The notes beneath the pieces were generated by a model. It searched no databases, was not told where the DNA came from, and saw only the letters and a program-made list of their open reading frames with translations. From Candidatus Omnitrophota bacterium (GTDB taxonomy: Bacteria; Omnitrophota; Gorgyraeia; B26-G9), in assembly GCA_043814605.1 (NCBI GenBank), contig JBDRJV010000007.1:67354-131353 (forward strand): a stretch of 64,000 nt of DNA, written 5' to 3'. Positions within the stretch are counted from its first letter, which is position 1, and every line of letters starts with the position of its first letter. The position numbers and the translations under genes were made by a program. Positions 7,729-39,654 of the stretch are shown here, piece by piece.

Positions 7729-8802
7729 ATGCCGCTAAAATTGAATAATTTATTGAAAATCATGCTCGATAGAGGGGCTTCTGATTTACATATCCATGCT
7801 TATGCTATTCCGCAAATCCGAATAAACTCACAGCTTGTTGCGCTGGATTATCCAGAGTTTACTCCGGAGCAAAGCAAAGATATTGTTTATCCGTACTTAG
7901 CAGAAGATGAAATTAAAGATTTTGAAAAGGATAAAGAACTAGATACTTCCTTTAGCGATGCCGAACTTTCGGCACGCTTTAGAATGAATGTTTTTTATCA
8001 TAAAGGTGGGGTTTGTGCGGCAATCCGGGCAATCCCAAAAAAAATTCCTGATTTTAGTGAATTAGGGTTGCCGGAGCAGCAAATGGTTCAGATTTGCCGC
8101 AGTAAAAGAGGACTGGTCTTAATGACCGGAGCCACAGGCTCAGGTAAGTCCACAACTTTAGCGTCAATAATCAACCGCATAAATGCAGAGCGTAATTGCC
8201 ATATAATTACGGTTGAAGATCCTGTGGAATTTATTTATACTAATAATAAAAGTATTATTACGCAGCGGGAAATTGGCAAAGATACAAATTCTTTTTCCGG
8301 GGCTTTAAAATATATTCTCCGGCAGGACCCGGATGTGATTTTAATTGGAGAGATGAGAGATTTAGAAACAGTGCAAGCGGCAATGAATATGGCGGAAACC
8401 GGGCATTTAGTTTTTGCCACGCTGCATACATCTGATTGTGTTCAAACGATCAACAGAATTATTGATATGTTTCCCTATCAATCACAATCTCAAGCCCGGA
8501 CACAATTATCCTATGTTTTATTATCAACTATTTCGCAGCAGCTTTTAGCTAAATCGGATAATTCCGGTTTATGTTTAGCCAGTGAATTAATGATTGCGAC
8601 TTTCGGGGTACGGGCAATGATTCGGGAAGAAAAGGTACATCAGATATTTTCTCTGATTCAAACCGGATTGAAAGAAGGGATGTATACAATGAATCATTCG
8701 CTTTATGAATTATACAAAAAGGGGTTAATTACTTATCAGGAGGCATCCGCCCACATAACTGATACTCAGGATTTCAAGAGATTTTTTCAAGGTCCAAGAT
8801 AA
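7729..8802 (+). CDS. pilT: type IV pilus retraction ATPase PilT (paralog 1)
   Basis: 357 aa; Walker A GATGSGKSTT; PilT/PilU-family layout without the GspE N-domain or Zn tetracysteine motif. Confidence 0.85.
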   Translation: MPLKLNNLLKIMLDRGASDLHIHAYAIPQIRINSQLVALDYPEFTPEQSKDIVYPYLAEDEIKDFEKDKELDTSFSDAELSARFRMNVFYHKGGVCAAIRAIPKKIPDFSELGLPEQQMVQICRSKRGLVLMTGATGSGKSTTLASIINRINAERNCHIITVEDPVEFIYTNNKSIITQREIGKDTNSFSGALKYILRQDPDVILIGEMRDLETVQAAMNMAETGHLVFATLHTSDCVQTINRIIDMFPYQSQSQARTQLSYVLLSTISQQLLAKSDNSGLCLASELMIATFGVRAMIREEKVHQIFSLIQTGLKEGMYTMNHSLYELYKKGLITYQEASAHITDTQDFKRFFQGPR

Positions 8803-9232: not shown

Positions 9233-10297
9233 ATGGCTTTAGAAATGTCAAAATTATTAAAGAATTTAACGGAACGCAGTGGTTCAGATTTACATCTAGG
9301 CGTAAATACTCCGCCGCATTTTCGTATACATGAGAAAATGATTCCGCTGGATTCAAAGGCTTTATCCGCGGCAGAAGTGCGTGATTTAGTTTACAGTATT
9401 TTAAACCCCAGGGATATCGAAAAGTTTGAAAAAGAAAAGGAACTGGACCGATCTTTTGAAATTGAAGGGATGAGCCGGTTTCGTTTAAACGTTTTTTTTC
9501 AAAGAGGATATATCGGATGTGCAATTAGGGTGATCCCGTTTAAAATTCTTACGTTTTCAGAATGCGGTTTGCCGGAGAAAACAATAATTAATTTAGTCAG
9601 AAAGCCCAAAGGTTTAGTTTTGGTAACCGGCGCTACCGGTTCTGGTAAGTCAACAACTTTAGCTTCAATTATTGATCAGATCAATGAAGAAAGGGATTGT
9701 CATATTGTTACTGTGGAAGATCCGATTGAGTTTGTACACAAAAATAAGCAAGCGGTTATTGATCAAAGGGAAGTTGGGCAGGATACGCTCAGTTTTGCTA
9801 ATGCACTAAAGCATGTTTTGCGCCAGGATCCAGACGTCATCTTAGTTGGGGAAATGCGGGATTTAGAAACAATTGAGGCCGCTTTGACCATTGCCGAAAC
9901 CGGTCATCTTGTCTTTGCTACGCTGCATACTTCAGATTCCGTGCAAACAGTAAATAGAATTATTGATGTTTTTCCTTCGCATCAGCAGCAGCAAGTTAGA
10001 ACTCAGCTGTCTTTTGTGCTGCAGGGGATTATTTCTCAGCAATTAATTCCTAAAGTCGGCGGAACCGGCCGGGTATTAGCTTCAGAAATTATGGTTTCAA
10101 CCGCAGCGGTAAAAAGTATGGTGCGAGAGCAGAAAGTGCATCAGATATATTCTCTGATTCAATCCGGGCAAAAAGACGGAATGAGAACAATGAATCAATC
10201 AATATATGAATTATATGCAGAAAAACTAATCACTTATGAAAGTGCAATTGCGCGGTCAACAGATCCGGAAGATTTAATGCGCTTGTTAAAAAGATAA
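9233..10297 (+). CDS. pilT: type IV pilus retraction ATPase PilT/PilU-family (paralog 2)
   Basis: 354 aa; Walker A GATGSGKSTT; ~60% identity by eye to the upstream pilT. Confidence 0.85.
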   Translation: MALEMSKLLKNLTERSGSDLHLGVNTPPHFRIHEKMIPLDSKALSAAEVRDLVYSILNPRDIEKFEKEKELDRSFEIEGMSRFRLNVFFQRGYIGCAIRVIPFKILTFSECGLPEKTIINLVRKPKGLVLVTGATGSGKSTTLASIIDQINEERDCHIVTVEDPIEFVHKNKQAVIDQREVGQDTLSFANALKHVLRQDPDVILVGEMRDLETIEAALTIAETGHLVFATLHTSDSVQTVNRIIDVFPSHQQQQVRTQLSFVLQGIISQQLIPKVGGTGRVLASEIMVSTAAVKSMVREQKVHQIYSLIQSGQKDGMRTMNQSIYELYAEKLITYESAIARSTDPEDLMRLLKR

Positions 10298-10951: not shown

Positions 10952-12667
10952 ATGATGCAAAGTGTTAAAGACAAAATGCTGGAGGTGTTAACGCGTTCTA
11001 ATTTTTTAACCAAAGAGCAATTGGACGAAGCGATCCTGACACAAAAAAAAACCGGTACGCGTTTGAGTGAAGTTTTAATAACCCTCGGCTATATTTCACA
11101 GCGGGATTTAGTGATTGTATTAAGCCAGAGTTTAAATATCCCCCCGATAAATTTAGCCAAAATGAAGATTAATCCGGAAGTTGTTAAAATTATTCCCCGT
11201 GAGCTTGCCGAAAAATACCAGGCAATAGTAGTTTCTAAAATTGGCAAAATATTAACCATTGCCATGGTTGATCCTTTAAATGTTTTGGCGATTGATGAAT
11301 TAAAAGTATTAACAAACTTTACGCTTAAAATTGTTATTGCTTCAGAAGAGCAGTTAAAAGAAGCGATCAGCAATTATTATAGTGTTACGACGAATGCTCA
11401 GATCCGCGGCATTATTGATGACGTAAAAGATATGGATATTGAAATCATTGAAGACAAACTGGAAAAAGAATTTTCGATCAGTTCGCAGGAATTGTTAAGA
11501 GCGGTAGAAGATGCTCCGGTTGTAAAAATTACAAATTTAATTCTCTCGGAAGCAATAAAACTCAAGGCGAGTGATATTTTAATCGAACCGCAGGAAAAAA
11601 GATTACGGATCCGCTATCGTTTAGATGGTATTTTAAAAGAATTTCCTTCCCCTCCCAAATCAATGCAAGAGGCGATTGTTTCCCGGATTAAGGTTATGTC
11701 TATATTGAACATTGCCGAACATCGCCTGCCGCAGGATGGCCGTTTTAAAATTAAACTGCAAAACCGCGAGGTTGATTTTCGTGTTTCAGTTATGCCGACC
11801 AGCCATGGGGAGAAAGTTGCCTTACGTATTTTAGATAAAACCGTGGTTGTTTTAGATATCGATGCTATGGGATTTGAAGAAGCACCGCTTAAAAAAATAA
11901 AAGAGATTTCTTTAGAACCGCACGGAATGATTCTGATGTGCGGGCCTACCGGCAGTGGTAAGTCAACCACCCTTTACAGTATTCTTAAACATATTGATGA
12001 CCCGGAAAAAAATTTATGCAGTGCGGAAGATCCGGTGGAATATCAATTAAAAGGGATAAACCAGGTAAATGTAAATACAGATGTGGGTTTAACGTTTGCC
12101 GGGTCGCTAAGGTCTTTTTTGCGTCAGGATCCGGATATAATTATGGTCGGGGAAATTCGCGATGTGGAGACTTTAGATATTTCGATTAAAGCAGCCTTAA
12201 CCGGTCATTTAGTTTTGAGTACATTACATACGACTGAGGCAGCGGGTGCCATAACCCGAATGGTAAATATGGGGATAGAACCTTTTTTAATTACATCCTC
12301 ATGCCTTCTGGTATGTGCACAGCGTTTAATTCGAAGAATTTGTCCGGATTGTAAAGAACCCTATCCCATTACCGAAGAGCTGCGGAAAGATTTTAAAATT
12401 CCGGCGAATTACAAAGAACTGTATCGAGGCAAAGGCTGTGCTAAGTGCGAAAAAACGGGATATCGGGGCAGGATTGGTTTATGTGAAGCTTTAGTGTTAA
12501 CCCCGGCAATTCGTGATTTAATTATGGAGCGGGTGCAGGAAAATGTGCTTAAAGCCAAAGCCCGGGAAGAGGGCATGAGCACTTTACGCGAAAACGGAGT
12601 GAAAAAAGCAATAAGAGGCATTACCACAATTGAAGAAGTAACCAGGCTAACTGTGGACGATGATTAA
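10952..12667 (+). CDS. pilB: type IV pilus assembly ATPase PilB/GspE family (paralog 1)
   Basis: 571 aa; N-terminal MshEN-like motif (RLSEVLITLGYISQRDLVIVLSQS) and GspE-N domain; Walker A GPTGSGKSTT; tetracysteine Zn motif CPDCK...CAKCEKTGYRGR. Confidence 0.88.
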   Translation: MMQSVKDKMLEVLTRSNFLTKEQLDEAILTQKKTGTRLSEVLITLGYISQRDLVIVLSQSLNIPPINLAKMKINPEVVKIIPRELAEKYQAIVVSKIGKILTIAMVDPLNVLAIDELKVLTNFTLKIVIASEEQLKEAISNYYSVTTNAQIRGIIDDVKDMDIEIIEDKLEKEFSISSQELLRAVEDAPVVKITNLILSEAIKLKASDILIEPQEKRLRIRYRLDGILKEFPSPPKSMQEAIVSRIKVMSILNIAEHRLPQDGRFKIKLQNREVDFRVSVMPTSHGEKVALRILDKTVVVLDIDAMGFEEAPLKKIKEISLEPHGMILMCGPTGSGKSTTLYSILKHIDDPEKNLCSAEDPVEYQLKGINQVNVNTDVGLTFAGSLRSFLRQDPDIIMVGEIRDVETLDISIKAALTGHLVLSTLHTTEAAGAITRMVNMGIEPFLITSSCLLVCAQRLIRRICPDCKEPYPITEELRKDFKIPANYKELYRGKGCAKCEKTGYRGRIGLCEALVLTPAIRDLIMERVQENVLKAKAREEGMSTLRENGVKKAIRGITTIEEVTRLTVDDD

Positions 12668-12688: not shown

Positions 12689-14410
12689 ATGCGCAGAGCA
12701 AAAAAAAGACTGAATGAACTTTTATTAGATTATAATTTAATTGAAGAAAAGGAAGTTGTCCGGGCTTTAGAATTACAGCGTAAGCGGGGTGTGCCTTTAG
12801 CCACAATTTTAGTCGAGGAAAAATTTGTTAAAGAAGAAGATGTGGTTAGTTGTTTTTGCCGGCATTTAAATATTCCTCCGATTACTTTAGCAAAATTTTA
12901 TGGAGCCGAAAAAATTATTAAATTGATTCCCGAACACATTGCCCGGCATTACCGTTTACTTTGTGTTTCTCAGATGGGGAGAATGTTGACTGTGGCGATG
13001 TGTGATCCTTTAAATGTATTAGCAATTGATGATATCAAAGCTTTAACCGGATACGAGGTAACTCCGGTTGTTGCTGGCTTAGCGGATATGAAATTAGCTT
13101 TAGACAGATTTTATCTGGGAAAAGTTGAAGAAATTAAGCCGGAGCAGTCGTTTGATGAATTAGTAAAAGGTTTAGACAGTGAAGATATTGAGATAGTGAG
13201 TAATCAGTCTCAGATTGATATTGGCGAGGTTATTCGTTCCAGCAGTGAAGCACCGATAGTTAAAATTATTGATGCTTTAATTGCGGAATCTTTAATAAAA
13301 AGGGCTTCGGATATTCACATTGAGCCTTATGAAGATGAAATTCGGGTAAGATACCGCATTGACGGCGCGTTAATGCAAGCGGCAGTATTACCGAAAAAAA
13401 TTCAAAACGCTGTTGCCGCCAGACTTAAGATTATGTCTAATTTAGATATTACCCAAAGATTAGTGCCTCAGGACGGCAGGTTTAAAGTAAGGCTGGAGGA
13501 AAAAGAGGTTGATTTTCGTGTTTCAGTTTTGCCGATAAGTTTTGGGGAAAAGGTTGTTATGCGGGCTTTAGATAAATCGAATTTAAGTATTGGGCTGGAA
13601 GCTTTAGGTTTTCTGCCTCAGGCAATGGAGGCATTTCAATATGCGGTAACCCGGCCTTACGGAATGATTTTAGTGACCGGACCCACAGGTTCGGGTAAGT
13701 CAACAACACTTTACTCTGTTTTAAATAAATTAAACAACCCGGAGCGAAATATTATTACGATTGAAGACCCGGTTGAGTATCAGGTTGAGGGGATTACTCA
13801 GGTTCAGGTTAAACCGGACATCGGGCTTACTTTTGCCACAGGGTTACGTTCAATTTTACGGCAAAATCCGGATATTTTAATGGTAGGAGAAATCCGTGAT
13901 TTTGAAACCGCAGATATTGCGGTTAAGGCAGCTTTAACCGGGGCTTTGCTTTTAAGTACATTGCATACCAATGATGCACCGGGAGCAATAACCCGTCTTA
14001 TTGATATGGGGATTGAACCGTTTCTAATTTCCAGCAGTGTAATTGCGGTTGCTGCGCAGAGATTAGCGCGTAAGGTTTGTGCAGCTTGTAAAGAACCGCT
14101 TGAAATACCGCAAGCAGTATTAGACCGTTTAGGCATAAAACTGGATGCAAAAAAAATAAAAGCGTTTAAAGGCAAAGGTTGTGATAAATGTAGTGGCAGC
14201 GGGTACCGGGGCAGGTTTGCGATTTTAGAAGTTATGATTGTAACCGATGCAGTCCGGGAAATGATTATGAAGCGATGCTCGAGTGATGAAATTAAAAGAT
14301 ATGCCCGGAAAGAATTAGGCATGCTTACATTACGGGATACAGGGATTGAAAATTTTATCAGGGGCCAGACGACACTGGAAGAAGTATTAAGAGTAACATC
14401 GAGTGAATGA
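12689..14410 (+). CDS. pilB: type IV pilus assembly ATPase PilB/GspE family (paralog 2)
   Basis: 573 aa; Walker A GPTGSGKSTT; tetracysteine CAACK...CDKCSGSGYRGR; N-terminal GspE-N domain with a degenerate MshEN motif. Confidence 0.88.
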   Translation: MRRAKKRLNELLLDYNLIEEKEVVRALELQRKRGVPLATILVEEKFVKEEDVVSCFCRHLNIPPITLAKFYGAEKIIKLIPEHIARHYRLLCVSQMGRMLTVAMCDPLNVLAIDDIKALTGYEVTPVVAGLADMKLALDRFYLGKVEEIKPEQSFDELVKGLDSEDIEIVSNQSQIDIGEVIRSSSEAPIVKIIDALIAESLIKRASDIHIEPYEDEIRVRYRIDGALMQAAVLPKKIQNAVAARLKIMSNLDITQRLVPQDGRFKVRLEEKEVDFRVSVLPISFGEKVVMRALDKSNLSIGLEALGFLPQAMEAFQYAVTRPYGMILVTGPTGSGKSTTLYSVLNKLNNPERNIITIEDPVEYQVEGITQVQVKPDIGLTFATGLRSILRQNPDILMVGEIRDFETADIAVKAALTGALLLSTLHTNDAPGAITRLIDMGIEPFLISSSVIAVAAQRLARKVCAACKEPLEIPQAVLDRLGIKLDAKKIKAFKGKGCDKCSGSGYRGRFAILEVMIVTDAVREMIMKRCSSDEIKRYARKELGMLTLRDTGIENFIRGQTTLEEVLRVTSSE

Positions 14411-20476: not shown

Positions 20477-21784
20477 TTGATTTATGAAAATTTGACATTT
20501 TTTAATTCCTCTTTTATAATAACCTCAATGTTAACCACAAAAGCTTCTCAATATTTTGTTATCTTCTTCAGGTTTTGCATTGCCACAATTATCCTGGTTG
20601 TGAATGCAAAGCTCTTCGGATTAGGTTTAAATCCTGTTTATTATTTAATTTGCAGTGTATATGTGCTGACTATAATATATCTGCTCTTAATCCTGGCAAA
20701 AATATCGCATGCCCGGCTCTTTTATGCCCAGATAATTGCGGATTTGATAATTGAAACTATGCTCGTGCATTATACGGGCGGCATTGATTCTGTTTTGAGT
20801 TTAATGTATCCGCTTTCTACGATTGCCGCAAGTATCATGATTTCCCCGCGCGCAGCAATCGTGATTGCATTCTTGGGCAGTACATTGTATTCTGTTAATG
20901 TAACTTTAGAAACACTAAATATTTTGCCCATGTATGTTATGGGAATGAATGTCTTGTTGCGGGAAAATTCGTATATTTTTACTTTACTTTATTTTAGAGT
21001 TACAGTGTTTTGCATTATCGGGTTTTTAAGCGCCTATATTGCGCAGCAGGTTAATAAAAAAGATAAAATTGTTAACCTGCTGCAGAAAAAATTACAAAGA
21101 GAAGATAAACTCCTAGCGATTGGTAAATTAGCTGCTAATACCGCCCACGAAATCCGCAATCCTCTGGCTTCAATTTCCGGCTGTGTGGAAGCGCTAAAAG
21201 AAAACCTGGATTTAAGCGGCAATAATAAAAAATTATTTGAACTGATTATCAAAGAGACAAACCGGCTTAATGATATTATCAACGGATTACTCGAATATGT
21301 TAAACCCCGCCAGCTGCAAATTGCCAGGGTTTCTCTGTCCGAACTTATCGAGGAAGTTATTTTTCTGGTTAAAAACAATAAATTTTTTAACGCGAATATT
21401 ATTTTAAAAAATGAAAGCAATGATCAAAATTTAAAAATTAACTGCGACCCGCAGCAGATAAAGCAGGTGCTGTTTAATCTTTTAATTAATGCAGTTGAAG
21501 CAATTGAAAAAAGTGGTAAAATTATAATTAAGCATAAATACTTGGAAGCTATAGATCAGGTGCAAATTGAGATTAGTGATAACGGCCAAGGGATTGGGCC
21601 CCAGCAATTGGAAAACCTATTTGAGCCTTTTTCCAGCGGCCGGGACAAAGGGGTGGGGCTGGGATTGGCCATTGTCTTGAGTATTGTAAAAGAGCATGGC
21701 GGGGATATAAAAGTTAGCAGTAAACTCGGCCGCGGCACGATTTTTCATGTTTTTTTGCCGGTAAGGAAAGAGAGTAATTTATAA
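20477..21784 (+). CDS. pilS: membrane sensor histidine kinase, PilS-like
   Basis: ~6 predicted TM helices; H-box HEIRNPLASI; N box (LLINAVEAI); G boxes (DNGQGI, GVGLGLAIV). Sits immediately upstream of a sigma54 activator. Start codon uncertain (TTG at 20477). Confidence 0.8.
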   Translation: MIYENLTFFNSSFIITSMLTTKASQYFVIFFRFCIATIILVVNAKLFGLGLNPVYYLICSVYVLTIIYLLLILAKISHARLFYAQIIADLIIETMLVHYTGGIDSVLSLMYPLSTIAASIMISPRAAIVIAFLGSTLYSVNVTLETLNILPMYVMGMNVLLRENSYIFTLLYFRVTVFCIIGFLSAYIAQQVNKKDKIVNLLQKKLQREDKLLAIGKLAANTAHEIRNPLASISGCVEALKENLDLSGNNKKLFELIIKETNRLNDIINGLLEYVKPRQLQIARVSLSELIEEVIFLVKNNKFFNANIILKNESNDQNLKINCDPQQIKQVLFNLLINAVEAIEKSGKIIIKHKYLEAIDQVQIEISDNGQGIGPQQLENLFEPFSSGRDKGVGLGLAIVLSIVKEHGGDIKVSSKLGRGTIFHVFLPVRKESNL

Positions 21785-21815: not shown

Positions 21816-23171
21816 ATGCAGCCAAAGATATTATTAGTTGATGATGAGAAGGATTTACTAGAATGGTTGAGCATTGTATTAGGGAAGGAAGGCTATACAG
21901 TGCGCTGTTCAAGTTCCGGCGAGGAAGCATTAAAACTGTTTAAGCAGGAAAATTTTGAAATGGTGATTACGGATATCCGCATGCCGCAAATGAGCGGGAT
22001 TGAACTCCTGCGTCAGATTAAAAATCATAACCCGGAAGTTATTGTTTTAATGGTGACGGCTTATGCTTCAGTCGAAACTGCAGTGAAAGCCCTGCGTTAT
22101 GGAGCTTATGATTATTTGTTTAAGCCGTTTAAACTTGATGAGATAAAAATAATTATTAAAAAGGCGTTCAGTCAAAAAAGGATTTTAACAGACGATAAGT
22201 CACAGCAGAAAAAATTAAAAGAAAAATACCGTTTTGCCAATATTATCGGCCAGGATAAATCAATGCAAAAAGTTTTTGATCTGATTGAGAAAGTATCCAA
22301 AACTAATACCACGGTTTTGATTAACGGTGAAAGCGGCACAGGAAAAGAGTTAATTGCCAAGGCCATGCATTTTCATAGTTTAAGAGCAACCAAACCGTTT
22401 GTTTCCATTGATTGCGGGGCTTTACCGGAAGAATTACTGGAAAGTGAATTATTCGGGCATGTTAAAGGATCGTTTACCGGTGCGATTTCCAGTAAGCAGG
22501 GATTATTTGAAGTTGCTTCCGGCGGGACTTTATTTTTAGATGAAATCGGCGAAACCTCACAAGCCATGCAGGCAAAGTTACTACGGGCTTTGCAGGAGCG
22601 GGAAATCCGTCCGGTGGGAGCAACAAAAGTAGTTAAAGTTGATGTGCGGGTTTTAGCCGCAACAAATAGAAATCTGGAAGATGAGGTCAAACGGGAAAAT
22701 TTCCGCAAAGACTTATTTTACCGCATCAGTGTGATTTCTTTTCATCTGCCGAGATTAACACAGCGCCGGGATGATATCCCTTTGCTCGTGGCGCATTTTT
22801 TAAAAAAATATCAAATTCCCGGTAAATCTTTAAATAAAATATCTCCGGAATGCTTAGATTTATTTATGCAATACAGCTGGCCGGGAAATGTCCGGGAGTT
22901 AGAAAATGCAATTGAGAGTGCCGTGGCATTAGCAGATAAAGATGTTATTAATATCGAAGATATTCCGGAGCGGATTACAAAACTCTCTGCGCCAGGATCA
23001 GAGGGCGACTCTAGTTTTGAGGATTCTTTAAAAGGAAAAGTAGAGCAGTTTGAAAAAGAGTTAATTGTAAAGACAATGACAGAGGTTGGCGGGAATAAGA
23101 ATCTGGTGGCAAAAATACTCAAAATGACACGCCGGAATCTGGATTATAAAATTAAAAGATATGGGCTTTAA
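21816..23171 (+). CDS. pilR: sigma54-dependent response regulator, PilR-like (NtrC family)
   Basis: Receiver (LLVDDE ... DIRMP); AAA+ sigma54-interaction domain (Walker A GESGTGKE, GAFTGA-equivalent GSFTGA, ELFGH); C-terminal Fis-type HTH. Confidence 0.88.
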   Translation: MQPKILLVDDEKDLLEWLSIVLGKEGYTVRCSSSGEEALKLFKQENFEMVITDIRMPQMSGIELLRQIKNHNPEVIVLMVTAYASVETAVKALRYGAYDYLFKPFKLDEIKIIIKKAFSQKRILTDDKSQQKKLKEKYRFANIIGQDKSMQKVFDLIEKVSKTNTTVLINGESGTGKELIAKAMHFHSLRATKPFVSIDCGALPEELLESELFGHVKGSFTGAISSKQGLFEVASGGTLFLDEIGETSQAMQAKLLRALQEREIRPVGATKVVKVDVRVLAATNRNLEDEVKRENFRKDLFYRISVISFHLPRLTQRRDDIPLLVAHFLKKYQIPGKSLNKISPECLDLFMQYSWPGNVRELENAIESAVALADKDVINIEDIPERITKLSAPGSEGDSSFEDSLKGKVEQFEKELIVKTMTEVGGNKNLVAKILKMTRRNLDYKIKRYGL

Positions 23172-23400
23172 TACAGCGGTTAGAAAAAATCTGAAGTACG
23201 ATGGACGATCGCCCGCCAAAAAACGGCGAAGCTGGGACGAGGGATGAAAAAGCAAAAAAGAGTTAACTATATTTAATAGTTAACACTTAACTTAAGATTA
23301 TTGTAATTAAGAATAAATTTTCATTAATTAGAAAAAATTTTCTAGCATTATAAAAACTGCAAAAACTTATCCACAGTTTAAAGGAATTGCTTGATTATTG

Positions 23401-23425
23401 TAACACAATTGTTTTCAGTGTGTTA
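23401..23425. promoter_or_regulatory. inverted repeat TAACACA-N11-TGTGTTA; candidate upstream activator (PilR-type enhancer) site
   Basis: Perfect 7-bp arms at 23401-07 and 23419-25, ~60 bp upstream of the -24 element; flanked by AT-rich direct repeats (aattg...). Confidence 0.4.
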
Positions 23426-23462
23426 TAAAAAACAATTAAAATTAATTGATTAAATTGTTTTT

Positions 23463-23477
23463 TGGCACAGTGATTGC
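23463..23477 (+). promoter_or_regulatory. sigma54 (RpoN) promoter, canonical -24/-12 elements
   Basis: TGGCAC-AGTGA-TTGC (GG-N10-GC spacing) at 23463-23477, ~60 nt upstream of the pilA1 ATG. Confidence 0.75.
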
Positions 23478-23537
23478 TTGAATTAGTATGGACTTTAACT
23501 ATTTGTTAACGGAATTTTGAAGAAGGGGGTGTTTATT

Positions 23538-24008
23538 ATGGATCGTAAGGGTTTCACATTAGTAGAAATTATGATCGTAGTAGCTATTATTGCGCTATTA
23601 GCAGCCATAGCTATTCCGAACCTTTTGCGTGCCAGGTTAAACGCTAATGAGGCAGCTGCACAGTCAACACTGAAAACAATTTCCACAGCGTGTGAAAGTT
23701 ATCGCGCTGCACAAACAGTGCCGACTTATCCAACAGGAGATTCAACTGTAGCAGGGGTTGGAGGATTGACAGATGTAAATCCAGCATATCTTGATGCTGG
23801 GATCTTTTTAGGAGCAGGTAGACAAGGCTATATTTTTAATTATGATAATGTTAGTGCTAATGAATATGTCGCAGCAGCCAGACCAGCAAATCCCAATGTA
23901 ACGGGTATCCGATGCTTTGGCATTAATGAAAGTGGTGTTTTAAGAGCTGATCCTGCTAATGCAGCTATTACTGATGCCACTTATGATGCTGCTACTGTTG
24001 TGCAATAA
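23538..24008 (+). CDS. pilA: type IVa major pilin PilA (paralog 1)
   Basis: MDRKGFTLVEIMIVVAIIALLAAIAIPNLL (G|FTLVE signal plus conserved N-terminal helix); C-terminal Cys pair; RBS GGGGGTG before the ATG at 23538 (the tracked ORF starts earlier, at 23517). Confidence 0.85.
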   Translation: MDRKGFTLVEIMIVVAIIALLAAIAIPNLLRARLNANEAAAQSTLKTISTACESYRAAQTVPTYPTGDSTVAGVGGLTDVNPAYLDAGIFLGAGRQGYIFNYDNVSANEYVAAARPANPNVTGIRCFGINESGVLRADPANAAITDATYDAATVVQ

Positions 24009-24030
24009 TATTTTTAAAACTAGGATAGAA

Positions 24031-24066
24031 AAAAGCGGTGTTTTAAAAAACACCGCTTTTTTCTTT
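24031..24066 (+). terminator. rho-independent terminator after pilA1
   Basis: AAAAGCGGTGTT-ttaaaa-AACACCGCTTTT followed by a T-tract. Confidence 0.75.
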
Positions 24067-24092
24067 ACACATCCTAAACATAATGCTAAAAT
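24064..24092 (+). promoter_or_regulatory. sigma70-like promoter candidate for pilA2 (TTTACA-17 nt-TAAAAT)
   Basis: TTTACA 24064-69, 17-nt spacer, TAAAAT 24087-92, 13 nt before the pilA2 ATG region. Confidence 0.4.
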
Positions 24093-24104
24093 ATTTATAT
24101 TATA

Positions 24105-24575
24105 ATGAATAAGTTAAAAGCATTTACTTTAGTGGAAATTTTAATTGTGGTGGCAATCATTGCCATGCTTGCAACCTTGACTATTCCTAATTTACTCAGA
24201 GCGCGTCTGAATGCAAATGAAGCAGTAGCGCAAGGGACTTTAAAGTCTATTGCTACTGGTTGTGAGAATTTCAGAGCATCTCAGGTCGCTTTGTCTTATG
24301 CTGCAAATCTAAATGAGTTAACTTCTGCTAATCCTGCATATTTAGACGCAACTGTAGATACTGCCACAATAGGAGTTGCTAAAAATGGTTATAATTTTAC
24401 TTATACTCGGGTAAATCTTAACCAGTATGTGTGCTGTGCTACGCCGGATATTTATCAGGTTAGCGGTATCCGGACTTTTGCAATCAATGAAACAGGGCTT
24501 TTAAGAGCTATGGATAACGGAGCAGTAGTGATAAATACAACAGCTGAATATGAGGCCTTGGATGTTGTCAATTAA
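24105..24575 (+). CDS. pilA: type IVa pilin PilA (paralog 2)
   Basis: MNKLKAFTLVEILIVVAIIAMLATLTIPNLLRARLNANEA is near-identical to the pilA1 N-terminus over the first ~35 aa; the C-terminal region diverges and contains Cys residues. Confidence 0.85.
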   Translation: MNKLKAFTLVEILIVVAIIAMLATLTIPNLLRARLNANEAVAQGTLKSIATGCENFRASQVALSYAANLNELTSANPAYLDATVDTATIGVAKNGYNFTYTRVNLNQYVCCATPDIYQVSGIRTFAINETGLLRAMDNGAVVINTTAEYEALDVVN

Positions 24576-24908
24576 TTTCATTTTAGTTGAGTTATCTTAT
24601 TTGGTTGCGCAGAGATAGAATCTAAAATTATTAAAAATATATTGACAAAATTGTCTAAATTATAATATTATATATATACTTAAAATAAATGGATTTGTTC
24701 AGGGAACAAGGAGGTGTTATTTGCTAAGGTCTAATATTTCTGCATTTTTCCATATCCAGGGTGTAACTTCTAGTTTTACTGGGGCAATTTTTTACTCTGC
24801 TGCCTATCGTCAAAAAATCCATTACACAGAAATTCAATCCAAAAAAAAAGACGCTTTGTTGGTTTTTTGGGGAGGAGTAAGCCGGCAAAAAAAAGAGAAT
24901 AATTATTT

Positions 24909-26186
24909 ATGGAAAAGTTAATTATTATTTTACCGACTGTAGGAATTTTGTTTTTAATAATCCTAGGAATGCTGGCACCGCTCATGGCCCCGCCGGCATT
25001 TCTGGCCACTCTGCCTTTTATTGCCTTAGCAATTTATTTATACAAGAAAAAAAACAGCCTGAAAAAAGAATTAGAGGAAATGCGGCTTTCTTACCGGCAG
25101 AAAAAAATAGAAATTGAAAAAGAAATCATAAAAAAAGACAAAAGGCAGTCTGAACAGTTTAACGAATTAAAAAAATTCGGCCGGGATCTTTCCGGAGCTT
25201 TAAATAAAGGGGAATTATTGCGTTTGATTGCCAATACGTTTCAAAAACTAACTGTTTCTAAATCCGGAGAGAGTCAGTGTTTTTTATTAAGCAATGATTT
25301 AGGCTCAGATGAATTTATCTATGAAGTGGGAGATAATTTTGATAGTAATATCCTAAAATCATTACGTTTTAAAACCACGGATGAGATCATTCAAAGCGTA
25401 GTGACATCTAAAAAAGTGCATACCTTTATCAGTGATATCTTTAGCGGAGATTCAAATATAACTTATTTTTTTAAATCAGAACATTTGGCAACACTGGCGC
25501 AGCTGGATTCTATGGCATTAATCCCCCTAATTTTAGAGGATGAGGTGTGGGGAATTATTGTAATTTTTTGCCATGAGGATGCAGCGGAAAACATAAAAAA
25601 AGAAGAAGAATTTTTTGAGCTATTGATGGCCCAGGCATCGATTGCTTTAGGCAGTGCAATTCACCGCGGTTTAGCCAGTGTGGATAGATTAACGCAATTG
25701 TATAACCGGACTTTTCTGCAAAAACGCATGAATGAGGAAATTGAATTTTGTAACCGGCAATTTTTACCAATGAGCCTGATGATGTTAGATATTGACCATT
25801 TTAAAGAAATCAATGACCTTTACGGGCATCAAGAGGGGGATATGGTTTTAAAAAAAATTGCCCATATTATCAGTAAAAATGTCCGGTTAACCGATTTAGT
25901 CGCGCGTTATGGGGGCGAGGAATTTGTGGTTGTTTTGCCGGGGATTGCGGAAACAACATTTGGAAAATTTTCCATTGCGAAAAGATTATGTGAATCTATT
26001 GCCAAGGAAGACTTTATTATCAGTGAGGAAAAAAAGATAAAAGTAACCGTAAGTATTGGGGTTGCGCTGCGCCGCTATCCTGATGATAAAGCACAGGGCA
26101 TGCAGGAATTAATCAAAAAAGCCGATACCCTGCTCTATAAGGCCAAAAATTCCGGCCGTAATCAAGTTTGTTATAGTGCAGATTAA
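24909..26186 (+). CDS. membrane-anchored diguanylate cyclase (GGDEF domain, GGEEF active site) with a GAF-like sensor region
   Basis: Two N-terminal TM helices; RYGGEEF active site; I-site-like RxxD upstream; DxLT..NR motif typical of GGDEF domains. Confidence 0.82.
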   Translation: MEKLIIILPTVGILFLIILGMLAPLMAPPAFLATLPFIALAIYLYKKKNSLKKELEEMRLSYRQKKIEIEKEIIKKDKRQSEQFNELKKFGRDLSGALNKGELLRLIANTFQKLTVSKSGESQCFLLSNDLGSDEFIYEVGDNFDSNILKSLRFKTTDEIIQSVVTSKKVHTFISDIFSGDSNITYFFKSEHLATLAQLDSMALIPLILEDEVWGIIVIFCHEDAAENIKKEEEFFELLMAQASIALGSAIHRGLASVDRLTQLYNRTFLQKRMNEEIEFCNRQFLPMSLMMLDIDHFKEINDLYGHQEGDMVLKKIAHIISKNVRLTDLVARYGGEEFVVVLPGIAETTFGKFSIAKRLCESIAKEDFIISEEKKIKVTVSIGVALRRYPDDKAQGMQELIKKADTLLYKAKNSGRNQVCYSAD

Positions 26187-38644: not shown

Positions 38645-39654
38645 TAATTGTTCTCAAGAAAGAGATAACTGCGGCTCAGAAAAATAAGTTAATGCAGAAA
38701 ATACATTCCCTCGGGCTTAAAACAATGGTTTCCCGGGGGGTGGAAAGATCAATTATTGGCGTAATTGGAGCCGAAGATAAATTGCGGGTACAGCCGCTGG
38801 AGGCTTTTGCCGGAGTGGAGAGTGTTATTTCAGTTTTGGCTCCCTATAAGCTTGTTTCGCGTGAGTTTAAGCCTGAGGATACAGTGATCAAGATAAAACA
38901 GGAACGGATTGGCGGCAAGAAAGTTATTATTATGGCTGGGCCGTGTGCAATTGAGAATCTTAAAATACTTAAGGCAATAGCTAAAGCTGTAAAAAAATCC
39001 GGGGCAACAATCTTAAGAGGCGGGGCTTTTAAACCCAGGACTTCACCCTATTCTTTTCAAGGTTTGGGTGAAAAAGGTTTAAAAATCATGAAACAGGTTT
39101 GTGATGATTTTGGTCTTTTGAGTGTGACCGAGGTTATGGACCCGCGGGATGTAGGGTTAGTTTGTAAATATGTGGATATTATGCAAATTGGTGCAAGAAA
39201 TATGCAGAATTTTAATCTGCTTAAAGAAGTGGGAAAAAGCAGAAAGCCCGTACTTCTAAAACGCGGGATGATGTCTACAATTAAGGAATTACTAATGAGT
39301 GCGGAATATATATTAAGTGAAGGTAATTTCAATGTCATTCTTTGTGAACGGGGGATTCGGACATTTGAAACATACACAAGAAATACTTTAGATATCAACG
39401 CAGTTCCGGCAATAAAAAAATTAAGTCATTTACCGGTTATTGTTGATCCCAGCCACGCGACGGGTAAATGGGGATTAGTTAGTGCGGTAAGCAAGGGCGC
39501 AGTGGCTGCGGGAGCAGATGGGCTGATTGTGGAAGTGCATACTCATCCAGAGCAGGCTGCTTCTGACGGGGCCCAGTCTTTAAGTCCGGAAAATTTTGAT
39601 CAAATGCTTAAGGAATTAAAGAAAATTGCCGCGGCTGTGGATCGGGAAATGTAA
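38641..39654 (+). CDS. aroF: 3-deoxy-7-phosphoheptulonate (DAHP) synthase, type I-beta with N-terminal regulatory domain
   Basis: 337 aa; N-terminal ferredoxin-like regulatory domain then a KDO8PS/DAHPS I-beta core ([12 protein letters not shown] ... KRGMMS ... [10 protein letters not shown]). Confidence 0.8.

Follow-up and report, generated by a model that had tools for sequence, protein, structure and literature searches.

A conserved sigma-54 promoter, candidate enhancer dyads and a second predicted promoter at the paired pilin genes of an Omnitrophota type IV pilus locus

How are two paralogous pilin genes transcribed when they lie one behind the other, directly downstream of a two-component pair resembling PilS and PilR? 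The question is raised by a 64-kb stretch of DNA from a Candidatus Omnitrophota bacterium (contig JBDRJV010000007.1), called the window here, in which a type IV pilus locus carries the pilin genes pilA1 and pilA2. The best explanation, which the conserved sequence leads us to regard as probable, combines sigma-54/PilSR control of pilA1 through an upstream enhancer (termed E1), a terminator behind pilA1 and a separate promoter for pilA2. The kinase (PilS-like, 20477-21784) would phosphorylate the adjacent NtrC-type regulator (PilR-like, 21816-23171), and by analogy PilS may sense pilin levels as it does in Pseudomonas. Phosphorylated PilR would assemble on the upstream enhancer and remodel the closed complex, and only then would the sigma-54 promoter fire. 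A strong terminator would end most pilA1 transcripts, and pilA2 would be expressed separately, probably weakly, from an extended -10 promoter of the sigma-70 type placed right after the terminator T tract.

Three things were observed directly in the window and in related loci: the sequence elements, how far their positions are conserved between species, and the domain content of the proteins. The related loci were gathered by scanning a genome collection with the PilR-like regulator. The scan returned orthologues 71-80% identical to it from Candidatus Omnitrophota metagenome-assembled genomes, with a full-length gene in 11 loci; an extra locus, L016, lies on a contig carrying only the C-terminal 86 residues of PilR. 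More distant PilR-like matches (L012-L015, from Syntrophales and Desulfosporosinus) have no pilin nearby and were therefore set aside as other NtrC-family regulators. DNA 5' of pilA1 is retained in ten loci, the window and nine relatives, and DNA 3' of it in nine. Upstream regions were anchored on the -24 element, with positions given relative to the T of TGGCA, and elements were counted over the nine non-window loci and compared with 5000 mononucleotide shuffles. This comparison takes no account of shared ancestry, nor do the nine relatives count as independent, since L005, L006 and L008 are close to each other. The shuffle counts are for these reasons supportive and not probabilities, which weighs against leaning on them too heavily. 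A metagenome scan with PilA1 yielded 80 loci, none above 68% identity and mostly from other lineages, and did not enlarge the enhancer sample; an exact-sequence look-up found no recorded protein identical to PilA1.

The pilA1 promoter and its upstream elements

23463..23477, + strand: predicted sigma-54 -24/-12 promoter, TGGCAC-N5-TTGC, with a predicted transcription start near 23489
23538..24008, + strand: pilA1, presumed major type IV pilin of 156 amino acids; leader MDRKG, cleavage before FTLVE, stop codon 24006-24008

PilA1 has the hallmarks of a type IV pilin. Its leader is short and basic and has Gly at -1, the mature protein has Phe at +1 and Glu at +5, and its N-terminal helix is hydrophobic and closest to those of solved Geobacter, Myxococcus and Thermus pilins. 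It carries an N_methyl motif (1.4e-08) and matches TIGR02532, and its gene is preceded by a strong Shine-Dalgarno sequence, AAGGGGGTG, at 23523-23531. The original prediction placed a sigma-54 -24/-12 element about 60 nt upstream of this gene, next to pilS and pilR, and the element is found there. Its GG and GC doublets are exactly 10 bp apart, in the orientation of the gene, and the -12 GC (23476-23477) lies 61 nt 5' of the ATG (23538). TGGCAC-N5-TTGC is the sole exact match in the 64-kb window, against 0.14 expected from 100 shuffles, 14 of which give at least one match; the same site is also the top match of a looser scan of the window with the GG-N10-GC consensus, in which no other sigma-54 promoter reaches a comparable score. 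The form TTGGCA[CT]-N5-nTGC stands 67-113 nt before the pilA1 ATG in all ten loci, with GG-N10-GC invariant, while the surrounding DNA is largely unalignable. Conservation of this kind is strong evidence that the element is functional. A stricter sigma-54 pattern gave no match 3' of pilA1 in the three relatives that it matches.

Just downstream of the predicted start, an element TGGnCTTTAACTATTTGTTAAC (window 23490-23512) spans the initial transcribed region and the 5' untranslated region and contains a TTAAC-N5-GTTAA dyad. It is common to the window, L005, L006, L008 and L011, is not present in the other relatives, and may act as an operator or form a small RNA hairpin.

Upstream of the promoter, four elements recur at fixed distances.

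23311..23322, + strand: E1d, distal enhancer dyad GAATAAATTTTC, GAAA-N4-TTTC type with one mismatch; candidate PilR site
23331..23342, + strand: E1p, proximal enhancer dyad GAAAAAATTTTC, GAAA-N4-TTTC; best candidate PilR site
23367..23375, + strand: E2, conserved non-palindromic box TTATCCACA, identical to the DnaA-box consensus
23401..23425, + strand: E3, palindrome TAACACA-N11-TGTGTTA, of which only TAAC-N17-GTTA is conserved

Each of these is held in position to within about 2 bp, and for each of them none of the 5000 shuffles reaches the observed count. The distal dyad is found at -150 to -154 in six of the nine relatives and the proximal dyad at -130 to -132 in eight (at -126 in L007). 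E2 lies at -92 to -98 in eight relatives, with at most two mismatches and five exact copies, and the TAAC-N17-GTTA form of E3, with at most one mismatch, at -59 to -63 in five. Counted from the predicted start site of the window, E1d covers about -178 to -167 and E1p about -158 to -147, the two being 20 bp apart. The whole window holds only two pairs of GAAA-N4-TTTC dyads, E1 and one at 39070/39090.

Among these elements, the tandem E1 dyads, some 130-150 bp from the -24 element, are the most likely enhancer for PilR. In L010, which has the most divergent PilR with an identical recognition helix, E1-like dyads at -143 and -121 are kept together with the promoter and the other elements are lost; E1 is the best candidate because it is the sole upstream element retained there. 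It is also favoured as the activator site because tandem dyads two helical turns apart are the classical enhancer layout. In L003, pilR and pilA1 are separated by an insertion of ~3.4 kb, despite which E1, E2 and E3 stay with pilA1; the three elements are therefore part of the promoter module, a further point in favour of E1.

Relatives have a hot spot for insertions between pilR and the enhancer, and those in L002 (1780-2781), L003 (3063-6330) and L004 (2010-3000) always lie upstream of the E1 dyads. Their content includes pairs of small open reading frames on the minus strand that resemble toxin-antitoxin modules, REP-like GC-rich hairpins, further cargo genes and a fragment that codes for an HuH (PNHIHG) motif.

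The original prediction had instead taken the palindrome at 23401-23425 as a plausible PilR enhancer and did not mention E1 or E2; if the palindrome is the PilR site, the GAAA-N4-TTTC dyads would bind something else. The palindrome is indeed exact, unlikely by chance, and extends to 17-nt arms with 82% complementarity; T, A and A of its left arm are nearly invariant alignment columns, and its outer dyad is position-conserved in five of the nine relatives. Moreover, 'TGT-N11-AGA' and nearby elements are hallmarks of P. aeruginosa PilR sites (PMC6058289). The 7-bp arms, however, are peculiar to the window: conservation does not extend to the inner 3 bp of either arm, and the full palindrome (at -62) recurs only in L003, with two mismatches. 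L005, L010, L011 and L016 have no such dyad, yet the PilR recognition helix is identical in the comparable orthologues (PilR of L016 is incomplete on its contig), and a distance of 21 bp between half-sites is unusual for one Fis-type helix-turn-helix (HTH) dimer. The palindrome is thus not the main conserved upstream feature, E1 and E2 being better conserved, and that it serves as the PilR site seems to us rather unlikely. It may be a perfected version of the TAAC-N17-GTTA dyad.

Two considerations nevertheless weigh against the preferred assignment of E1 to PilR. The assignment follows from conservation logic, and E3 falls within the zone, reportedly from -40 to -120, that PilR binds in P. 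aeruginosa. E3 sits roughly midway between E1 and the promoter, and sigma-54 promoters often carry an IHF site between enhancer and promoter; E3 is a candidate for an architectural (IHF-like) or secondary activator site. Compared by eye with the IHF consensus WATCAANNNNTTR, E2 and E3 give partial matches only, the TTR part is not conserved, and no IHF site is claimed. E2 was rejected as a sigma-70 promoter element because no hexamer pairs with it consistently. E2 and TAAC-N17-GTTA, with phased A/T tracts, would probably bind a co-factor for looping or create a DNA bend.

The terminator, pilA2 and its promoter

24029..24062, + strand: predicted intrinsic terminator after pilA1; GC core GCGGTG/CACCGC at 24035-24056, T6 tract at 24057-24062
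24064..24092, + strand: predicted sigma-70-type extended -10 promoter for pilA2, TTTACA-N17-(TG)n-TAAAAT, with a predicted leader of ~6-8 nt
24105..24575, + strand: pilA2, conserved paralogous pilin of 156 amino acids; leader MNKLKA, Ala at -1, no Shine-Dalgarno sequence

The clean terminator that had been proposed behind pilA1 was confirmed. A GC-rich hairpin stands directly before the U tract and folds at -26.3 kcal/mol (z = -9.2), a stability reached by none of 200 shuffles, and a GC-rich hairpin with a T tract follows pilA1 in all nine loci with downstream DNA. The terminator looks bidirectional, because an A tract precedes the hairpin. A simple terminator scan overlooked it and folding revealed it; the probable reason is that A/T runs on either side lengthen the stem so that it reaches into the T tract. 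Rfam gave no known RNA family in 23100-25000; the sub-threshold matches all fall on the terminator hairpin and comprise terminator-containing leader and small RNA families and one miRNA precursor family.

PilA2 is a full-length pilin with a class III motif and an N_methyl match (8.2e-06), but with Ala at -1. Alignment of the two pilins gives 53% identity overall, with 77% in the first 52 residues of the mature proteins and 43% in the remainder. The earlier description of a near-identical N-terminal helix joined to divergent C-terminal domains was therefore roughly right, although the C-terminal domains are clearly homologous. A neighbour-joining tree of 24 pilin-like genes from the window and related loci resolves three pilin orthologue groups, with L011_g3 and L016_g4, which are more distant, falling outside. 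The PilA1 group is always the first gene and has M[DNG]RKG leaders and N-termini 88-100% identical. The PilA2 group, found in eight loci, includes the second gene of the window and has variable leaders of 6-17 residues; Ala at -1 occurs in the window and also in L011 and L016. The third group is absent from the window. Since PilA1 and PilA2 form separate conserved orthologue groups, their duplication is old, predates these species and has been retained in both copies. Such an old, stably retained duplication argues against antigenic switching, so that the regulated switching or antigenic variation suggested by the original prediction finds no support here, the more so as the expression signals of PilA2 are weak.

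These signals are a predicted leader of only ~6-8 nt, the missing Shine-Dalgarno sequence and Ala at -1, which together suggest a low output; PilA2 looks like a weakly expressed accessory pilin. About half of the open reading frames of the window also have no obvious Shine-Dalgarno sequence, and in Pseudomonas a change from Gly to Ala at -1 is said to lower prepilin cleavage without abolishing it.

A different role for PilA2, that of a second major pilin building a distinct filament, possibly through a second PilB paralogue, would recall PilA4 and PilA5 of Thermus thermophilus. PilA2 is full-length, shares half of its sequence with PilA1 and has a conserved orthologue group and a promoter of its own; the locus encodes two PilB paralogues and two PilT-like ATPases; and the sequence matches include the solved Thermus pilins PilA5 and PilA4. 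The translation signals of pilA2 in the window are weak, however, and the gene has neither a terminator nor a Shine-Dalgarno sequence of the strong pilA1 kind. No link between PilA2 and a particular ATPase emerges from these data, and a distinct PilA2 filament seems to us rather unlikely.

The sigma-70-like -35/-10 pair that had been assigned to pilA2 is present. TTTACA-N17-TAAAAT has 10 of 12 consensus matches and a TG before the -10 hexamer, and starts two bases after the T tract; ten of 2000 shuffles of its spacer reach its score. A TTGnnn-N17-TATAAT-like sequence with an upstream TG is strong in five of nine loci (the window, L005, L006, L007 and L008), where it lies 14-21 nt after the terminator T tract and is matched by 0-18 of 2000 shuffles each. 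In L007 the promoter is followed by a Shine-Dalgarno sequence and a GTG start.

Alternatively, a single promoter could serve both genes. Most pilA2 transcripts would then start at the sigma-54 promoter and read through the pilA1 terminator, and the sigma-70-like match would be fortuitous AT-rich sequence. Several observations weigh on this side and against a separate promoter: sigma-70-like matches are common in AT-rich DNA, and hexamer pairs of this type are frequent in the region, where 15 were counted and 7.9 expected; L016 and L003 have no such pilA2 promoter, and those of L009 and L011 are weak; and the short leader devoid of a Shine-Dalgarno sequence fits read-through as well. Yet high-scoring promoters are equally placed after the terminator in five loci, and the terminator they follow is strong and universal among the nine loci, which makes read-through as the main source of pilA2 transcripts an unlikely arrangement. 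A separate housekeeping-type promoter for pilA2 thus remains the likely reading of these sequences, though not a universal one.

The best sigma-70 match of the region, TTGACA-N18-TATTAT (24642-24671, 11 of 12), lies further downstream, 5' of a 66-codon open reading frame (24721-24921) that precedes the GGDEF gene. This promoter recurs in relatives, and the small open reading frame is patchy, sharing an LVFWGGxSR motif with L011. It is not claimed as a gene, its conservation across loci being weak and patchy.

The pilus cluster and the kinase-regulator pair

20477..21784, + strand: PilS-like sensor histidine kinase; multi-pass membrane N-terminus, HisKA, HATPase_c; TTG start codon uncertain
21816..23171, + strand: PilR-like NtrC-family sigma-54 enhancer-binding response regulator; REC, AAA+ and Fis-type HTH

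Pfam profile scans of the open reading frames delineate one large, complete type IV pilus cluster within the window. At one end, two PilT-like ATPases (7729-8802 and 9233-10297) accompany a single-domain response regulator; the middle comprises two PilB paralogues, pilC and minor pilins, followed by pilS, pilR, pilA1 and pilA2; and behind pilA2 come a GAF-GGDEF cyclase, pilM(N), pilO, pilP and the secretin pilQ, then nusA and infB. The order pilS-pilR, spacer, pilA1, terminator, one to three further pilins and GGDEF gene recurs in the relatives, and pilS-pilR also stands 5' of pilA1 in the related loci that have pilR and pilA1 on one contig.

The regulator has the full make-up of an NtrC-type enhancer-binding protein, with Pfam matches to Response_reg (3.2e-32), Sigma54_activat (8.6e-71), HTH_8 (2.2e-12) and AAA_lid_14. 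All nine orthologues compared have its GAFTGA-type loop, GSFTGA (residue 218), its Walker A sequence GESGTGK and an HTH that is nearly identical. The kinase matches HisKA (1.4e-16) and HATPase_c (3.1e-26). The pair is linked to, and lies upstream of, a major pilin gene with a promoter of the sigma-54 type, as expected of PilS and PilR. Three results count against the proposed PilSR/sigma-54 control. The 6TM_PilS match of the kinase is weak (22.6 bits, E = 9.2e-05), below the 27-bit Pfam cut-off. Kinase and regulator both fall below every NCBIfam equivalog cut-off, their best matches being sub-cut-off hits to AtoC/AtoS and NtrC models, so that orthology to characterised PilR or PilS is not established at the sequence level by these models; 'PilS/PilR' is for both reasons a name by context. 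Finally, rpoN was found neither by Pfam scans of 39 larger open reading frames of the window, including every candidate of RpoN-like length, nor by an RpoN-box peptide search of the DNA of the window and of all the loci gathered. Its presence elsewhere in the genome is what the intact activator and the conserved promoter lead us to infer.

Other features of the cluster touch on pilus assembly and on a further signal. The tandem PilB-type assembly ATPases (10952-12667 and 12689-14410) are 45% identical, and the paired PilB and PilT-like ATPases could matter should the two pilins form separate filaments. A c-di-GMP-I riboswitch (RF01051; 15841-15964, + strand), which at 50.3 bits exceeds the gathering score, is found 76 nt 5' of the first minor-pilin gene (16041), and a GAF-GGDEF diguanylate cyclase is encoded directly 3' of pilA2 (24909-26186). 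Given this riboswitch and this cyclase, the minor pilins may be under c-di-GMP control and the major pilin under PilSR/sigma-54 control.

Known systems and other lineages

Control of pilA by PilSR and sigma-54 has been described in Pseudomonas (PMC6058289), Myxococcus xanthus (PMC6211767) and Kingella kingae (PMC9592894), and for Geobacter pilA it is cited in a passage of PMC3333781. The activator of P. aeruginosa binds repeated sites 5' of the promoter (PMC6058289), and candidate repeated sites are present here. As in its PilS-PilR/RpoN system, a multi-pass membrane kinase and an NtrC-type activator are encoded in the window, and a -24/-12 promoter precedes the major pilin gene. Unlike in P. 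aeruginosa, the upstream elements are GAAA-N4-TTTC dyads, TTATCCACA and TAAC-N17-GTTA, in place of TGT-N11-AGA and GTCT elements; the kinase and regulator of the window score below equivalog cut-offs, and the phylum differs. To our knowledge, pilSR of Pseudomonas does not lie immediately upstream of pilA.

In Myxococcus xanthus and Geobacter sulfurreducens pilA is sigma-54-dependent (PMC6211767). The gene order in these species is reportedly pilB-pilT-pilC-pilS-pilR-pilA, so that, as here, pilS-pilR lies directly 5' of pilA within the assembly cluster. The c-di-GMP riboswitch and the diguanylate cyclase set the window locus apart from those clusters. Geobacter pilA expression also depends on IHF (PMC7962754). 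Where Geobacter has a PilA-C partner, the second gene of the window encodes a full-length pilin paralogue and has a predicted promoter of its own; the enhancer motif differs too. A similar dependence on RpoN and PilR is seen for the major pilin gene of Kingella kingae, also named pilA1 (PMC9592894). In contrast to Kingella, whose PilA1 varies strongly between isolates under host pressure, PilA1 and PilA2 form stable orthologue groups in this clade. A dispensable pilA2 is said to adjoin pilA1 of Kingella. Thermus thermophilus PilA4 and PilA5 resemble the present pair as two full-length pilins with similar N-terminal helices and different globular domains; there the two pilins correspond to two filament types, of which the locus of the window gives no indication. 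Thermus pilin regulation does not, as far as we know, follow the sigma-54/PilSR scheme.

Omnitrophota are uncultivated and mostly ultra-small, and type IV pili, nearly universal among them, have been linked to attachment to hosts or prey in a study that mentions neither pilR nor rpoN (PMC10066038). A literature search for Omnitrophota together with RpoN or sigma-54 found nothing relevant. We know of no description of how type IV pili are regulated in this phylum.

More distant Omnitrophota pilA genes from metagenomes (L034, L038, L039, L048, L060, L061, L063, L065 and L071) have no sigma-54 element and carry instead a TTGACA-N17-TATAAT promoter, in a region ~260 nt 5' of pilA, followed by a conserved leader of ~170 nt. 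Most of these loci have GAAAGGAGGTG within the promoter spacer, those of L065 and L071 being different, and the conserved leader, which may be a structured regulatory leader, ends in AAGTCAATTnnACCTTAGGAAGGAGG. Because distant pilA genes have promoters of the sigma-70 type, the sigma-54 pilin arrangement appears specific to the clade of the window. That pilA1 too might be transcribed by a housekeeping sigma factor, its -24/-12 match arising by chance as an exact match does in 14 of 100 shuffled windows, is effectively refuted by conservation, the element recurring at comparable distances from the ATG in ten of ten orthologous loci, in otherwise diverged DNA and always beside the gene for a sigma-54 activator.

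Shorter pilins of the IPNF(V/I)(K/R)AR type, ~115-130 amino acids long and probably from outside this clade, occur in L066, L070, L074, L077, L078, L081, L085, L087-L092, L094 and L100. Their loci carry TGGCA[CT]-N5-nTGC at a constant ~106-149 nt before the ATG, which suggests that sigma-54-driven pilin genes are common in environmental bacteria.

The least ordinary aspect of the locus is its position-locked multi-element upstream region, with a perfect DnaA-box sequence among the elements. Since E2 is a perfect DnaA-box 9-mer, DnaA is a possible input, and the pilA1 control region might be a rigid four-element enhancer, its spacing fixed to about 2 bp as the intervening sequence drifts, at which pilin transcription combines PilR with a second sequence-specific input, for example DnaA or another factor; we consider this improbable. 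If true, a DnaA input would add cell-cycle or replication status to the control of pilin by PilR, and the same locus would add a c-di-GMP layer, through the riboswitch upstream of the minor-pilin operon and the diguanylate cyclase encoded downstream of pilA2.

The scheme itself, PilSR, sigma-54 and pilA, is a known one; what differs here is the phylum, the set of enhancer motifs and the full-length paralogue with its own predicted promoter. The underlying principle is textbook, and the gain lies in detail and not in concept. For one Omnitrophota clade, the analysis gives a cis-regulatory map that places a promoter and candidate enhancer dyads, along with two more conserved boxes, ahead of pilA1, and a terminator and a second promoter behind it. 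It also indicates that the promoter class of the major pilin gene differs among Omnitrophota lineages, with a sigma-54/PilSR arrangement in this clade and sigma-70-type promoters with a long leader in distant ones.

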